DNA of 64,000 nt from a virus (lineage: Duplodnaviria; Caudoviricetes). The notes under the pieces are model-generated. The model saw nothing but the letters and a program-made list of their open reading frames with translations, ran no database searches and had not been told where the DNA came from. This document shows, one piece after another, positions 5,352-63,519 of this stretch. The DNA is taken from IMG/VR virus record IMGVR_UViG_3300021425_002620. One strand, given 5' to 3'. A program made the translations under genes and the position numbers. Every line of letters begins with the position of its first letter. Position 1 is the stretch's first letter.

Positions 5352-8300
5352 TAGACTCTACCTACTACAACTTCAACAATGCCTTTTCCGTCATCGTCTT
5401 TTGTTCCAACTGCTTTACCAATTACTCTGCCTATGCTTGGATTATTATCTACCATTGCATATCCTGGTATTGCACTTGTTACAAGCATATCACCTTTAGA
5501 AACTTTACCGATTACTTTACATGGTACACGACCTTGTAATGCAATGCCAGTAACGTGATCTCCTTCTAAATGTGAGTTCATTAAATAAGCAGGATTAGTT
5601 GTTACAACACCAGCAACACGATGGTCGCCTTTTGTATTAGTTACAGTAACTTCTGCATCACCGCCAAATACTAGTACTGTTCCTGATTCGTATTCTGCAT
5701 CACCTAAATAGTTTTCTGCCAAGTCAGCATATTGTGCTTGTGTTGCTGTACCATAGAATGTAGTAGCATACATTGCTTGGAATTTTTTACTTGCAGTGCC
5801 AACAGTATTAGTGCCGTCATTGCCTCTATTTAAAATGTTGTTAGCAATTACATCTCCGCCAATAAGTGCATCATTAGCAAACCATGCATCACCTGTTTCT
5901 TCATTAAGTATAATTTTATACGAATCAAGTGTGCCACTGCCGTTGTTACCAGTATTTGTAATTCTAATTAAATCTCCAGACGCTGCTGCTGCTGTTGTTG
6001 GATTGTTACCTGTTTTTGCACCCCAATCAGTACTTCCTTTGGATGCAATATAATATAGTGTATCAATATTGCCAGCATTGTCTGTTATTTCTGTAGCAGA
6101 TCCTACTTGGAAACCATTTGTAATTTCGATGTCGTCTACATAAAGAGTTTTGTATCTATTATCATCTGTACCAATATCGTATGTAGAATCAAGATCTGGG
6201 AATGTACCAGTACTATCAAAAGTAAATGGTATCTTAACTGTATTGTTGCTGCTGTCGCCGACTACAAATCCAATTTGGCCTTCACCGCCACCTGCTGCAC
6301 CATTACCTAGTGCAATACCAGTACTTGCTAGTCCCTTTTCTCTCGGAGTTTCAATAAAGGAAGTATACATCCAATCAGCAGCAATAAATGGACTAGTTGC
6401 TGCAATCTCTGAAGCTTCTTGAAGTGTGCTGCGAGTAAAGTTATTTGCTACTTGTACAGTTCCATCTCCGTTTCCGGTATTGTTTGCAATAAATGTATCG
6501 CCAACTTTCCAATCGCCATTAGCAGATCTTTGATCAGCTGCTGCAACACAATTATTCCAGTTGGTAGGGGTTTGACCTACATCGTCGCCTAACGAAAGGA
6601 TTTCATACATAGTACTTGCTGTTAGAGAACTAGCAGAAATTTCATTAGGATCTCCCATTTTACCAATATTAACGTTTCCAGGAATCTTAACATCGGGTCC
6701 AAATCCATCAGCAGTCATATCACCTGCTGCTGATAATATAAGTCCACCTTGTATATTGCTGAGTTTTAAACCATCAGCTGTAGTAGTTGTAAGAACTGTT
6801 GGACTAGAACCTGTTCCAATTTTATAACTGTCAGCAGTAATACCACTGTTAGTATCAGTTTTTACAACAGAGTTTTTAGCACCTGCTGTGGTAAATGGTG
6901 CAACTCGATAACTGTCGTTACCAGTACGTTCCATTATACCTGCTGTTGCATAGTCAGCTGGTGATGCTAGATCGCCATTAATATCTACTGTATTGAAGTT
7001 ATCATGTTGTAGGCCGTTGCCTTCATCAACTACTGTATCAAATGTTACTTCAGCAACATTTGCACTTGACGCTGCACTATTACCTAATACAGTATCACTA
7101 CCAATTTTTTTAATTTTATCTAAAGTAATACCGTTGTTTTTTAATTGTACATAACCTCTAGTAACTCTAAAGTTGGCAAAGTCAAATGTTGATAAACCTA
7201 GCTCTGCTTGGTTGTTTTGTCTTGTAACTGTACCCTTTGGTAATGTAGAAGTACTTATTACACGTTTTACAGTACCGGTTGTAGTAGCACCTACACCTGT
7301 TAATACTGCTACAAATGTTTGGTTAGCAACATATGTATCTCCAGTAGTTCCTGCTGCATTATTCCATTGTGTTTGTGTTGTATCACCTAGACTAACAATT
7401 TGATATGTATATCCTTGTACAATGTCTGCAATGCTTTCAGTTGGAATATCTGTTTGAACTGTTACAAAGTTATCTGCTTCTTGTAGATATAATTTAGACT
7501 GTTCAATATCAGCTGCTATATTAACATCAGCATTTACAATAACTTCTGGATTGATCTGCATGTCAAAGTATGCTGTAGGTGTATCCAATATAGTTGGAGT
7601 ACCTGCTTGATCGTCGTTTTCTAATCTACGTGTAGTTAAAGATATGTCACTTACAGGTTGTGTGCCGCCTTGGCCATCATCAACAAATGGTTCTTCTGAA
7701 ATATTAATCATTTCAGCAAACGGCCCTGTAATTACTAAACCATTACGTGTGCCACTTGTAGTGATGCCAGTTAGATTTCCGTCAACATCAAATGTTCCGT
7801 CGCCGTCATAGATCGGTGTTGGATTTTCGTCTGGTGTAACTACATTGTATGAATCTGGTCCTGCTTCAAAACTTACAACAATAACATTACCTATCGAAAT
7901 ATCCAACTTAGAATAGTTGCCTACAATTTTACCAAAGTTTTGAGATCCTGTAACATCAGTTAAATATTTTCCAATTCCAAATGTTGCATTTACACCTAGC
8001 TCACTTGTTTCTGATGAGATGTAAATTGTTTTAGTATTAGTAAATCCTAAGAACTCGTTTGTTGTAGCGCCTTCGTTTTCAACATCTCTTAGACTAGTTG
8101 CCACTGCATATTCTTGAGTTTGTAGATCAACATAGTCTCTGTTTACTGCTGTTGTTCCTGGTGTACTATTAATGTCAACTGGAGCAATGTTTTCAATGGT
8201 GTTACCATTCATTTTCAAGTTGCCTAACATCGGAACAGCACCATTCTGTGTAATCACTGATGGACCTAACGGATTTGGAACAGAATTACCAGCTTGGTCG

Positions 8301-23996: not shown

Positions 23997-24292
23997 ACTT
24001 GCCTCGGTGTTGTGCCTGTTGCTGTATATAACTTCATTATTATACCATCAACTTCAGCTTCTGTCAACCATCCTTTTATTGTATCGCCTTCATTAGTAAT
24101 ACCTGGAAGTTCTACCATATCCGAAGCAACACCATCATTGGCATCAAACACGCCGATTTCGTATTTTCCTTGACTGCCGCCATATGAGAAATCGCTCTTG
24201 ACAATACTCAAGTGATATTTGCCAAAGTCAAGAACTGCTTGTACACCTTTAGGTACATCAGTTTCCAATAGTTTGAAATCCTTCAGTTTCAT
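23993..24292 (-). CDS. Hypothetical protein
   Basis: ORF in packed operon. Confidence 0.6.
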   Translation of the reverse strand: MKLKDFKLLETDVPKGVQAVLDFGKYHLSIVKSDFSYGGSQGKYEIGVFDANDGVASDMVELPGITNEGDTIKGWLTEAEVDGIIMKLYTATGTTPRQV

Positions 24293-24990: not shown

Positions 24991-25019
24991 ATTATAAGCT
25001 CATTTTATGCTGTTGTCAA
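24991..25019 (-). promoter_or_regulatory. Sigma70-type early promoter
   Basis: TTGACA-N17-TATAAT. Confidence 0.75.
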
Positions 25020-25523
25020 CTGAAAAAGCTCTAAATCTTTGGCGTAAAAGTCATTGATTTTATTATAGTTTGCGTGTTCAGTTACATAATTTCTAATTTT
25101 TACTTTGTTTCTGTTACCATCAATTGTATTAATAATGTCTAGAGTTGCAGTCTTTCTAAAACAGTTCCAATCTTCTTGCATACGATGCAAAAGATTAGGT
25201 TCGAACTGATATAACTTTGTTCTGTTTGGATCGAGCATTTCAATAAATGTATGTTGCGGTTGTGTGTGCTTGTCTAGATGCAGTTTTTCTAAATTAAAAC
25301 TTCTAATATCTGTATTATCAAACTGCTGACATCTCCATAGGTACTCTGTTGCACCACTAATCCATCTATCTATTGGATCTCGTATTACAGCAATGTATGT
25401 GCGTCTATTGATGTGCTTGTAGTCAGTAGGTGTCCAACTACAGTATGCAGAGATTGCGGTGCTTGCATTCTTTGGAATTAATACAATACATGCTTTGTCA
25501 TTGTAAAAGCCAGTTCTAAACAT
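25005..25523 (-). CDS. Sulfotransferase-family protein (start MFRTGFY)
   Basis: IPKNASTAI (PAPS-binding loop), VIRDPIDRWISG, HTQPQ and C-terminal FYAKDLELF motifs; the longer ORF call runs into tRNA-Arg. Confidence 0.7.
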   Translation of the reverse strand: MFRTGFYNDKACIVLIPKNASTAISAYCSWTPTDYKHINRRTYIAVIRDPIDRWISGATEYLWRCQQFDNTDIRSFNLEKLHLDKHTQPQHTFIEMLDPNRTKLYQFEPNLLHRMQEDWNCFRKTATLDIINTIDGNRNKVKIRNYVTEHANYNKINDFYAKDLELFQLTTA

Positions 25524-25536
25524 GCTGTATTTACAT

Positions 25537-25613
25537 TGGCGCGGCTGAAGAGATTCGAACTCCTGACCCTTGGTTTCGTAGACCAATGCTCTATCCAGCT
25601 GAGCTACAGCCGC
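25537..25613 (-). tRNA. tRNA-Arg(ACG)
   Basis: Cloverleaf GCGGCTG...CAGCCGC-G-CCA, anticodon arm TTGGT-CT-ACG-AA-ACCAA, TTCGAAT T-loop, encoded CCA. Confidence 0.95.
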
Positions 25614-25623
25614 GTAAAATAAT

Positions 25624-25652
25624 ATTATAGTTGACTTTCATCTAAATGTCAA
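25624..25652 (-). promoter_or_regulatory. Internal sigma70-type promoter for tRNA-Arg and the sulfotransferase gene
   Basis: TTGACA-N17-TATAAT between tRNA-Cys and tRNA-Arg. Confidence 0.75.
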
Positions 25653-25655
25653 CCA

Positions 25656-25729
25656 TGGAGTGAGAGGTGAGAATCGAACTCACATACAAGGATTTGCAAT
25701 CCTCTGCGTAACCATTCCGCCACTCTCAC
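25656..25729 (-). tRNA. tRNA-Cys(GCA)
   Basis: GTGAGAG...CTCTCAC-T-CCA, anticodon arm GAGGA-TT-GCA-AA-TCCTT. Confidence 0.95.
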
Positions 25730-25734
25730 ATAAT

Positions 25735-25811
25735 TGGTCGGGGATGCAGGATTCGAACCTGCGACCTTTCCGCCCCAAACGGAACGCACTCCCAGACTGT
25801 GCTAATCCCCG
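25735..25811 (-). tRNA. tRNA-Pro(TGG)
   Basis: CGGGGAT...ATCCCCG-A-CCA, anticodon arm TTCCG-TT-TGG-GG-CGGAA. Confidence 0.95.
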
Positions 25812-25885
25812 TGGCATAGGTGGAGGGAGTCGAACCCCCGCTTGCAGTTTTGGAGACTGCCGTGCTACCATAACACTTCACCCAT
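25812..25885 (-). tRNA. tRNA-Trp(CCA)
   Basis: ATGGGTG...CACCTAT-G-CCA, anticodon arm GCAGT-CT-CCA-AA-ACTGC; position 8 is A rather than the usual U. Confidence 0.92.
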
Positions 25886-25917
25886 AAAAAAAGCCCCTTG
25901 CTTTCGCTTGGGGCTTT
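25886..25917 (-). terminator. Intrinsic terminator (attenuator 3:4 hairpin) abutting tRNA-Trp
   Basis: AAAGCCCC-AA-GC-GAAA-GC-AA-GGGGCTTT followed by T run (7 T in total), ending right at the tRNA-Trp 5' end. Confidence 0.9.
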
Positions 25918-25967
25918 CTCACGTACTCAAATATCACGTCAAGACAAGCCCCTACCTCTTGGCGGGC
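25910..25967 (-). promoter_or_regulatory. Attenuator alternative hairpins (protector 1:2 and antiterminator 2:3)
   Basis: 2:3 = GGGGCTT-G-TCTT-G-ACGTG (25952-25935) pairs with TACGT-GAGA-AAGCCCC (25925-25910); 1:2 = GCCCGCC-AAGA-GGT-AG-GGGC (25967-25948). Confidence 0.85.
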
Positions 25968-26001
25968 ACCAACGAAAATTTGTTGTAACTGTCTTGAACA
26001 T
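25939..26001 (-). CDS. Attenuator leader peptide MFKTVTTNFRWCPPRGRGLS (20 aa)
   Basis: Hand-translated; AAGGA SD; control codons CGT TGG TGC CCG CCA at 25974-25960; TGA stop lies inside the antiterminator 5' arm. Confidence 0.85.
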   Translation of the reverse strand: MFKTVTTNFRWCPPRGRGLS

Positions 26002-26030
26002 GTAAGTATCCTTTTGTTTAGTATGTTACT

Positions 26031-26059
26031 ACTATAGTATCAGTATTTAGCTTTGTCAA
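26031..26059 (-). promoter_or_regulatory. Sigma70-type promoter of the leader/tRNA operon
   Basis: TTGACA-N17-TATAGT, with a late-like CTAAATA inside the spacer. Confidence 0.8.
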
Positions 26060-27098: not shown

Positions 27099-27173
27099 TT
27101 ATCTTTTTACTCTACAATTAGGACAAAAGTCATTGTATCCTAACTCTGTCTTACATTCTGGACAAGTATTCAT
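27099..27173 (-). CDS. Zinc-ribbon microprotein (24 aa, MNTCPECKTELGYNDFCPNCRVKR)
   Basis: Hand-translated; AGGA upstream, two CPxC motifs, fills the tRNA-Ser/tRNA-Thr spacer. Confidence 0.65.
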   Translation of the reverse strand: MNTCPECKTELGYNDFCPNCRVKR

Positions 27174-63114: not shown

Positions 63115-63480
63115 CTGCTATTTTTGGTAACAAGGTATAACTACCCCGTAGCGATCACGCCGCTAATGCAAAGTTTTCGTTTGCGTTTGTTTTGTTTCTT
63201 GCGTTAACCGAGCTTGCGCCGGACAACTCCACTCATCTATGCCGTGTATCGATCCTAGTTCGCCCCCATCATAAAAACACTATCCACAACACTTTGGCTT
63301 TTGTCTGCCTGCTCTCCAAGCACGGAAATCGATAACCCATTTCGTCACACACATTCCTAGTAGTGCGGCTAAACTTGTGTATTGTATTCCTGTCCAAATT
63401 AATGCCATTATAGTGTCCTTATGGTGGAGGCGCCGGGTACCGCCCCCGGGTCTACTCCGTCGTCAAATTGCTTCAACATT
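63115..63480 (-). ncRNA. ssrA: Circularly permuted two-piece tmRNA (alphaproteobacterial type)
   Basis: Acceptor piece ends GACCCGGGGGCGGTACCCGGCGCCTCCACCA (3' end 63422); coding piece starts GGGGGCGAACTAGGATCGA at 63267; tag reading frame ANENFALAA-TGA at 63184-63155; outer ends approximate. Confidence 0.93.
63280..63408 (-). CDS. 42-aa putative membrane peptide inside the tmRNA intervening segment (MALIWTGIQYTSLAALLGMCVTKWVIDFRAWRAGRQKPKCCG)
   Basis: Hand-translated; TAAGGA SD 7 nt before ATG, immediately after the acceptor CCA. Confidence 0.6.
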   Translation of the reverse strand: MALIWTGIQYTSLAALLGMCVTKWVIDFRAWRAGRQKPKCCG

Positions 63481-63486
63481 GTATAT

Positions 63487-63519
63487 TATTTATAACACAC
63501 TCAGACCGAGTAAGTCAAG
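63487..63519 (-). promoter_or_regulatory. Composite promoter of tmRNA: perfect late box TATAAATA (63494-63487) with TTGACT upstream
   Basis: Read directly; overlaps the stop of the upstream ORF. Confidence 0.7.

Follow-up and report, generated by a model that had tools for sequence, protein, structure and literature searches.

Is the supply of phage-encoded transfer RNAs (tRNAs) adjusted to the demand for them? To our knowledge, phage tRNA genes are usually treated as constitutive add-ons that serve codon usage or counter-defence, and we know of essentially nothing on their regulation. The question is raised by a locus on the minus strand of IMG/VR virus record IMGVR_UViG_3300021425_002620 (Duplodnaviria; Caudoviricetes), of which a stretch of 64,000 nucleotides (nt), hereafter the window, was analyzed. 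At this locus a promoter, a Shine-Dalgarno (SD) sequence, a 20-codon open reading frame (ORF) and an intrinsic terminator precede the genes for tRNA-Trp, tRNA-Pro, tRNA-Cys and tRNA-Arg, and an initial examination of the letters alone, the sequence-only reading, had proposed that the arrangement is a ribosome-dependent attenuator whose control codons match the tRNAs downstream. Analysis of the window and of its relatives makes it probable that the element is a ribosome-mediated leader-peptide transcription attenuator gating a phage tRNA operon, with sensing codons that are those read by the gated tRNAs. The four RNA segments of the element, referred to throughout, are defined in Table 1; segments 1 and 2 form a protector, segments 2 and 3 an antiterminator, and segments 3 and 4 the terminator.

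Conservation of the element among marine viruses

Relatives of the locus were gathered in two ways. Eighty loci were first collected by means of a neighboring phosphoesterase protein, and thus independently of the element itself; DNA-pattern scans, two of viral and one of metagenome contigs, then widened the set to at least 364 loci and at least 143 distinct elements. The scan pattern was GGGG...GTYTTRA...GCCCC...GGGGCTTTTT, and these motifs are present by construction in the scanned subset; the promoter, the SD sequence, the start codon, the length of the ORF, the Trp codon and the position of tRNA-Trp as first gene all lay outside the pattern. No related loci were found by way of the window protein encoded at 25005-25523. 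Nearly every phosphoesterase-fetched locus that possesses tRNA-Trp carries the module directly upstream of it, complete with promoter, SD sequence, small ORF, hairpins and terminator, and the tRNAs that follow tRNA-Trp vary widely from locus to locus. The element is abundant in marine metagenomes: the module of promoter, SD sequence, ORF, three-helix switch and tRNA-Trp is present in at least 143 distinct marine viral or metagenome sequences among the matches listed, to which the counts of copies given below also refer.

Within this family the parts of the element are kept in place. Specifically, GGTTGACA-N17-TATAGT or TATTAT is found at the same position in all 25 relatives whose upstream sequence was inspected, AAGGA or AGGAA is retained as SD sequence, and 138 of 141 untruncated copies have tRNA-Trp in first place. 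About 141 distinct relatives carry a homologous ORF of 15-24 codons (mostly 19-22); these ORFs start with ATG (117) or GTG (29), the start codon lying in the 5' strand of the protector, and their stop codon is always in or just before segment 2. A single Trp codon is invariant throughout the family and is located 13, 16 or 19 nt 5' of GGGG. The ORF remains open through insertions and deletions, some of which shift the frame relative to the conserved nucleotides such that TACAACAA encodes Thr-Thr in one class of leaders and Gln-Gln in another. That the frame is kept despite these shifts indicates a constraint upon translation through the leader and not upon the N-terminal peptide sequence.

The latter point bears upon a different account of the locus, in which the small ORF encodes a functional peptide, or the terminated leader RNA acts in trans, and the terminator is a constitutive, leaky insulator that lets a fixed fraction of transcripts read through into the tRNAs. 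Conservation of both ends of the peptide (MFKT/MIKT... and ...G(R)GMS) speaks for such a function, and reports on Sinorhizobium describe attenuator-derived RNAs and leader peptides acting in trans, namely rnTrpL and peTrpL (PMC6614838, PMC7298713). The conserved ends, however, coincide with both strands of the protector and with segment 2, and the same conserved nucleotides are read in different frames across clades, which points to constraint at the level of RNA and not of peptide. Furthermore, it is the middle of the peptide that varies, and it does so in step with the tRNAs, as detailed below, while a constitutive insulator has no need of a conserved antiterminator and protector. This account is therefore regarded as highly improbable.

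The association of the element with tRNA-Trp is close. Among related loci, 247 of 250 tRNA blocks led by tRNA-Trp are preceded by the terminator, as compared with 0-4 for every other type of array start, and no leader of the same kind was found before other tRNA blocks, including the Asn-Ser-Thr-Ala cluster of the window.

Two types of insert were observed between the T run and tRNA-Trp in relatives. Many (e.g., L029 at about 5680-5770, L153 and L239) carry a conserved structured insert of 77-95 nt that is closed by the stem ACTACACTA...TAGTGTAGT, contains several hairpins within it and lacks a promoter; it is probably transcribed together with the tRNAs as a small stable RNA. In L144, L361, L299 and L320 the alternative insert of about 68 nt has its own SD sequence and a 15-codon ORF (M..EYWRWM..) directly 5' of tRNA-Trp, with no terminator after it. 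A strict promoter was not found in any of these 68-95-nt inserts.

Leader codons follow the content of the gated tRNA block

In the window, five consecutive leader codons, CGT-TGG-TGC-CCG-CCA, are read by the four tRNAs downstream. Codons of these tRNAs make up 7.6% of the phage's 9,717 codons, and under the phage's own codon usage the chance of a five-codon run in a 19-codon ORF is 3e-5, or 2.5e-6 if all four tRNAs are to be represented. The sequence-only reading had called this match improbable, rightly so, but its hand estimate of 1e-3 was too generous to chance.

A single leader provides one such match, and the relatives provide many. Association tests were performed on 114 distinct combinations of leader and tRNA array. 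Since kinship inflates naive p-values, the controls consisted of shuffles within clusters, a reading-frame control, a contrast with tRNAs that have their own promoter, and phylogenetically independent pairs. The summed correlation between the presence of a tRNA and that of its own codons is 3.8, as compared with 0.17 +/- 0.6 when tRNA labels are permuted (z = 6, p < 1e-5), and for Cys, Ser(UGA), Gln, Ile(UAU), Tyr, His and Asp no other codon set predicts the tRNA as well as its own. This signal is confined to the frame of the ORF, with z of 5.9 in that frame versus -1.4 and -0.3 in the other two. The sequence-only reading had proposed, as a test, a search of related contigs for leader ORFs and terminators upstream of tRNA arrays and for control codons that co-vary with tRNA content; both are borne out by these data (z about 6).

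The relationship takes the form of a one-sided rule, in which a tRNA in the block entails a codon in the leader. Not one of the 66 arrays with tRNA-Cys lacks a Cys codon in its leader. More generally, of the 115 tRNAs contiguous with tRNA-Trp, 112 are matched by a cognate codon of the leader that precedes them (shuffled mean 82, maximum 96), and the three that are uncovered are all tRNA-Gly(UCC), accompanied by a GGT codon adjoining the Trp codon. With Cys, CAU-anticodon and Gly tRNAs excluded, coverage is 46 of 47 (p < 3e-4), even when shuffling is restricted to clusters of leaders with similar non-coding flanks. The position of these codons is likewise constrained: for nearly every gated tRNA a cognate codon lies at least 13 nt upstream of GGGG, and a ribosome stalled there would therefore leave segment 2 free.

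Comparison of sister leaders reveals the same trend on a finer scale. Differences that match the change in tRNA content number 23, versus 8 that oppose it, and most of the opposing differences involve TCC, a codon that the UGA anticodon reads poorly. Matching swaps include Pro to Ser with tRNA-Ser (twice), Tyr to His with tRNA-His, Leu to Phe with tRNA-Phe, His to Tyr with tRNA-Tyr, and Asn to Cys with tRNA-Cys. Similarly, in phylogenetically independent pairs drawn from a tree of the flanks and tRNA-Trp, changes in the same versus the opposite direction amount to 5.7/0 for ATA, 5.1/0.4 for Ser, 5.1/0.1 for Gln and 5.0/0 for Cys.

A further contrast is provided by tRNAs of the same arrays that do not depend upon read-through. 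Gaps of about 42-47 nt precede certain Glu, Arg, Ala or Gly tRNAs, and all 17 distinct gaps of this kind carry TTGACN-N16-18-TANNNT; for tRNAs behind such an internal promoter, a cognate codon is present in the leader in only 9 of 26 cases. This contrast bears upon the question of whether the codon/tRNA match merely reflects common descent or the codon usage of the genome as a whole, given that phages rich in a codon tend to carry its tRNA. The leader adjoins the array, so that any features of the two will correlate through descent, and of four non-cognate controls in independent pairs one was positive (tRNA-Gln versus Ser codons) and three were null; the positive result is attributable to the co-occurrence of Gln and Ser tRNAs. 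Descent or codon usage, however, would not favor cognate over non-cognate pairs to the extent seen in one and the same data set, nor would the signal be expected to vanish in the other two frames of the same nucleotides, to persist under within-cluster shuffling and in independent pairs, and to weaken for equally close tRNAs behind their own promoter. Of the alternatives considered here, this is the one to which we give the least credence.

Leaders with two or more ATA codons form a particular case: a UAU- or CAU-anticodon tRNA is present in 21 of 24 arrays with such leaders, versus 0 of the 90 arrays with other leaders. The tRNAs with a CAU anticodon (called "Met(cat)", e.g., in L169, L233, L208 and L009) may thus be lysidine-type tRNA-Ile2 molecules that read AUA, and not tRNA-Met; their sequences are about 60% identical to those of the UAU-anticodon tRNAs. 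The latter (L120, L137, L153, L094) are placed last in the gated block, are 92-94 nt in length and possess a long extra arm (..GTCTCCAGATTAGAGAGCG..). Because an arm of this length is unusual for tRNA-Ile, their amino-acid identity is uncertain. If the codon/tRNA rule is true, leader codons would reveal the decoding identity of such odd phage tRNAs from sequence alone, and CAU-anticodon tRNAs would read AUA.

What do these family-wide patterns imply for the leader of the window? The sequence-only reading held that its codons sense all four tRNAs, a claim that survives for two of them. The Trp and Cys codons are well-supported candidates for sensor codons. The Pro codons may serve structure, pausing, sensing, or all three; since Pro codons are universal in the family and are paired with segment 2, finding them in the window says nothing in favor of sensing. 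Support for CGT as a sensor codon is weak: a separate promoter serves tRNA-Arg, and CGT stands directly 5' of the Trp codon in five leaders, only two of which are accompanied by tRNA-Arg(acg). The Arg match in the window may be due to chance.

The behavior of Pro codons also invites the view that the attenuator senses general translation capacity, be it ribosome availability, slowing at Trp-Pro-Pro that depends on elongation factor P, or the coupling of transcription and translation, and that Trp, Cys and Pro codons are kept for RNA pairing and nascent-peptide pausing. Trp-Pro-Pro and Pro-Pro motifs are prone to stalling, Pro codons occur irrespective of tRNA-Pro (two or more in 79 of 114 leaders), and GCCCGCC, formed by the Cys and Pro codons, pairs with segment 2. 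Left unexplained by this view is the specific tracking of tRNA content by the variable codons, in the frame of the ORF only. In addition, many leaders have a single Pro codon (WPS, WPL, WCPS, WYPIL), and the geometry is such that a ribosome stalled at a second Pro codon would cover GGGG and favor termination and not read-through. We consider sensing of general capacity unlikely as the function of the element.

Layout of the element and its predicted folds

All parts named by the sequence-only reading, from the promoter and SD sequence to the 20-codon leader ORF, the terminator touching tRNA-Trp and the four tRNA genes, were located where it had placed them (Table 1), as was the separate promoter of tRNA-Arg. 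Also confirmed was the repetition of GGGGCTT, found at the end of the leader (25952-25946) and in the 3' arm of the terminator (25897-25891). Neither the junction of the T run and tRNA-Trp nor the intervals separating the gated tRNAs leave room for a promoter; tRNA-Arg, having its own promoter, is only partly gated by the attenuator. A simple terminator scan missed the terminator of the window because its loop limit is set at 8 nt.

Table 1. Features of the leader and tRNA operon in the window (all on the minus strand).
Feature	Position	Strand	Remarks
Promoter, sigma-70-type, TTGACA-N17-TATAGT	26059-26031	-	11/12 consensus matches; drives leader and gated tRNA block
SD sequence AAGGA	26013-26009	-	7 nt 5' of ATG
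Leader ORF, 20 codons + TGA, MFKTVTTNFRWCPPRGRGLS	26001-25939	-	
Codon run CGT-TGG-TGC-CCG-CCA	25974-25960	-	
Putative control codons TGG (Trp) and TGC (Cys)	25971-25969 and 25968-25966	-	preceded by CGT (25974-25972), followed by CCG-CCA (25965-25960)
Segment 1a, 5' strand of protector helix, start codon included	26002-25989	-	pairs with 25947-25935
Segment 1b, GCCCGCC (Cys and Pro codons)	25967-25961	-	pairs with GG..GGGGC of segment 2 (25956-25948)
Segment 2, GGGGCTTGTCTTGACGTG, 5' arm of antiterminator	25952-25935	-	holds last leader codons and stop codon
Segment 3, 3' arm of antiterminator	25925-25910	-	overlaps 5' arm of terminator (25920-25910)
Segment 4, 3' arm of terminator, GGGGCTT, and T run	25897-25886	-	abuts tRNA-Trp
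Terminator stem	25920-25910 / 25897-25887	-	T run ends at 25886, one base 5' of tRNA-Trp
tRNA-Trp(cca)	25885-25812	-	ARAGORN and Rfam; first gene of gated block 25885-25656
tRNA-Pro(tgg)	25811-25735	-	ARAGORN and Rfam; in gated block
tRNA-Cys(gca)	25729-25656	-	ARAGORN and Rfam; end of gated block
Second promoter, 5' of tRNA-Arg	25652-25624	-	12/12 consensus matches
tRNA-Arg(acg)	25613-25537	-	ARAGORN and Rfam; behind its own promoter

When folded at full length, the leader of the window adopts a structure of -47.3 kcal/mol (z -4.9) composed of the protector and the terminator. The protector joins the start region to the stop region through 13 pairs (26002-25989 with 25947-25935) and is supplemented by the pairing of 25967-25961 with 25956-25948; the SD sequence is predicted to be partly sequestered as well (26012-26003 with 25929-25921). 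On its own the terminator has an energy of -19.3 kcal/mol (z -5.0). In the stretch of RNA left accessible when a ribosome stalls on the Trp or Cys codon, the alternative hairpin described by the sequence-only reading (25952-25935 with 25925-25910) is formed by 16 pairs at -21.2 kcal/mol (z -3.6), surpasses the terminator in stability, and stays the lowest-energy fold with the 3' arm of the terminator present.

The same three states recur among relatives, for which folds were computed sequence by sequence. With no ribosome, the terminator forms in 143 of 143 copies and the protector between start and stop regions in 141 of 143. With a ribosome whose A site holds the Trp codon, and the 3' arm of the terminator as yet unmade, the CCCC of the terminator is paired upstream, as antiterminator, in 142 of 143 copies (mean -20.4 kcal/mol), and with a ribosome at the stop codon the terminator forms in all 143. 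Folding with and without the region covered by a ribosome thus yields the structures that the sequence-only reading had described, including the 1:2 protector hairpin and the trp-type attenuation geometry, in the window and across the family alike.

Support for the protector is also found in the pattern of nucleotide substitution: ATG to GTG is accompanied by CGTG to CGCG, and TGA to TAA by TCAAGAC to TTAAGA. The start/stop duplex has a mean energy of -12.4 kcal/mol for cognate versus -10.2 kcal/mol for non-cognate partners, the cognate partner being the better in 87% of copies, and the inner pairing of segment 1b recurs in the folds of relatives. In the clade of L032 the protector helix is kept from different sequences, and a joint change turns the GGGG/CCCC of segments 2, 3 and 4 into CGGGGG/CCCCCG. 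Conservation within the family is highest in segment 2, over GGGG(T/C)(A/T)TGTCTT(G/A)AC. Applied to a MAFFT alignment, RNAalifold returned only the GGGG:CCCC stem of the antiterminator, as the protector slips by one register between clades; for this reason, per-sequence folds and the energies of cognate and non-cognate duplexes were used.

Additional features were observed around the promoters. An inverted repeat at 26020-26040 (minus strand) overlaps the -10 box of the leader promoter and the point where transcription starts, reading TAGTA-N6-TACTA in the window and, at the corresponding position in relatives, AGTAT..ATACT or TATTAT..ATAATA, such that both sides change; it may be an operator or a 5' stem. 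Three promoters with 12/12 matches (TTGACA-N17-TATAAT) lie inside 2 kb on the minus strand, at 24991-25019, 24039-24067 and 25624-25652, and such a cluster of perfect promoters is typical of a strong early region.

Proposed mechanism of attenuation

Given the conserved elements, the alternative folds and the in-frame covariation set out above, the following course of events is proposed. Host RNA polymerase would start at the strong, early-type promoter, and a ribosome would load upon the 20-codon leader. On a leader that remains unloaded, the start region would pair with the stop region and GCCCGCC with GGGG, leaving segment 3 free to form the terminator, and transcription would stop one base before tRNA-Trp. 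Rapid decoding would lead to the same outcome, as the ribosome would cover the stop codon inside segment 2 and allow the terminator to form. A ribosome waiting at the Trp or Cys codon or, in relatives, also at other sensing codons just upstream would occupy segments 1a and 1b or hold them apart; GGGGCTTGTCTTGACGTG, starting 19 nt 3' of the Trp codon, would then be free to pair with ...AAGCCCC and consume the 5' arm of the terminator, and polymerase would read into tRNA-Trp, tRNA-Pro and tRNA-Cys. Because the output would remove the cause of the stall, the circuit would constitute negative feedback upon the supply of decodable tRNA, and the most likely interpretation is that the phage makes the gated tRNAs only when ribosomes run short of them.

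In this scheme ribosomes would stall on the leader and read-through would rise as they do so. In nature, decoding may become limiting because host tRNA is lost in the course of infection, because codon usage is mismatched, or through an anticodon nuclease of the host or starvation, the last two being triggers suggested by the sequence-only reading. More tentatively, although we hold it to be somewhat more likely than not, the leader may be viewed as an evolvable "table of contents", that is, a multi-input OR gate in which each read-through-dependent tRNA owns at least one sensor codon and codons are gained and lost together with tRNA genes, the whole serving as a closed-loop homeostat on decodable tRNA during infection, for instance in the face of host tRNA loss or an anticodon-nuclease defence.

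Several observations weigh against an attenuator operated by the gated tRNAs. With regard to structure, folding of the complete RNA while a ribosome sits on the Trp codon still yields the terminator at equilibrium in 133 of 143 copies, and the switch must consequently be kinetic, as in trp. The antiterminator is conserved but, the L032 clade apart, is without proof from covariation: a test of its duplex energies gave no signal (p = 0.42), because segments 2 and 3 hardly vary and its arms are nearly invariant, and the pattern used in the scans itself contained its GGGG and CCCC. With regard to sensing, some matching codons (Ser at +2/+3, Asp at +4) are only 7-10 nt from GGGG, where a stalled ribosome should cover segment 2; leaders often retain codons with no corresponding tRNA in the block; Pro codons are present with or without tRNA-Pro (correlation about 0), and Arg codons track tRNA-Arg weakly. 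Sensing would rely upon single codons, unlike the runs found in his, phe and leu leaders, and to these points is added the positive tRNA-Gln/Ser-codon control described above. What a ribosome senses is charged tRNA, and under amino-acid starvation extra tRNA would not help. Finally, megablast and blastn searches of 50,697 phage records matched only tRNA genes and revealed no cultured carrier of the element, and public RNA-run contigs on the region are uninformative, being mostly tRNA matches from other organisms. One 197-nt RNA-library contig spans 25820-25914, from the terminator into tRNA-Trp, for which DNA carry-over is possible.

Comparison with known regulatory systems

In its architecture the element resembles the attenuators of amino-acid operons. 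Promoter, SD sequence, short ORF and four segments forming a 1:2 protector, a 2:3 antiterminator and a 3:4 terminator are shared with trpL, hisL, pheL, leuL, thrL and ilvL of enterobacteria and with trpL of Sinorhizobium (PMC6614838). Also alike are the stop codon in or adjoining segment 2 and the placement of control codons, here 13-19 nt before segment 2. In E. coli trpL, about 17 nt separate the second Trp codon from segment 2. Like the ilv and thr leaders, the phage leader is multivalent, combining several kinds of codon. Every structural hallmark of the trp/his type is present in the phage element (ORF, terminator with no promoter after it, antiterminator, protector, and suitably placed control codons); an output of biosynthetic enzyme or synthetase is not, the downstream genes being tRNA-Trp, tRNA-Pro and tRNA-Cys. 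The element thereby differs from amino-acid operon attenuators in that it would regulate tRNAs and not biosynthetic enzymes, with a product acting directly upon the decoding step that is sensed. It differs further in that its inputs are one or a few codons and not a run, its codon set changes with the gain and loss of tRNAs, its protector brings start and stop codons together in one helix, and it belongs to a virus.

T-box riboswitches likewise couple the state of a specific tRNA to terminator read-through by way of a competing antiterminator. They bind uncharged tRNA directly, however, with no ribosome or ORF, and control synthetase, biosynthesis and transport genes, whereas the phage element has a conserved, translated ORF. 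The identification of the element as a T-box was rejected, as a scan of the whole window at Rfam gathering thresholds found only tRNAs and a permuted transfer-messenger RNA (tmRNA). Control of tRNA and rRNA operons by ppGpp/DksA, by Fis and by growth rate is textbook promoter-level regulation, and it too adjusts tRNA synthesis to translational demand, but it does so globally and at initiation, with no leader peptide, terminator or codon-specific input. Consistent with the supposition of the sequence-only reading, full-text literature searches turned up no account of tRNA genes controlled by a leader peptide.

If the proposed mechanism is true, no known feedback loop on decoding capacity would be more direct than an attenuator whose product is the very tRNA that is sensed, and a textbook mechanism would be extended to a new class of genes. 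The family also supplies natural "codon swap" experiments, with about 140 variants among the matches listed in which sensor codons follow the gain and loss of tRNAs. As a compact part of about 175 nt with a consensus sigma-70 promoter, the element could serve as a codon-specific sensor of tRNA availability.

The phage and its genomic surroundings

All genes of the window lie on one strand, at a GC content of 36-40%. Its DNA ligase is at most 37% identical to that of any cultured phage, and related contigs, of up to 236 kb, originate from marine and estuarine metagenomes. A two-piece tmRNA gene of the permuted alpha type is located at 63155-63497 (minus strand; 91 bits for Rfam tmRNA_permuted, 79 bits for alpha_tmRNA), for which ARAGORN gives the tag peptide ANENFALAA. 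This gene suggests an alphaproteobacterial host, and the host is probably a marine alphaproteobacterium.

Two further observations concern tRNA blocks other than the gated one. Between tRNA-Ser and tRNA-Thr of the window lies a Cys-rich ORF of 24 codons (MNTCPECKTELGYNDFCPNCRVKR, 27099-27173, minus strand), which resembles a zinc ribbon; the ORF stops 2 nt short of tRNA-Thr and has no terminator behind it. In other tRNA blocks of related loci, ARAGORN calls wobble-A anticodons, namely Ser(act) at 40 array starts, Asp(atc), Asn(att), Ile(aat) and Thr(agt), together with one suppressor-like tRNA (tta), and anticodons of both kinds are unusual for phages that infect bacteria.

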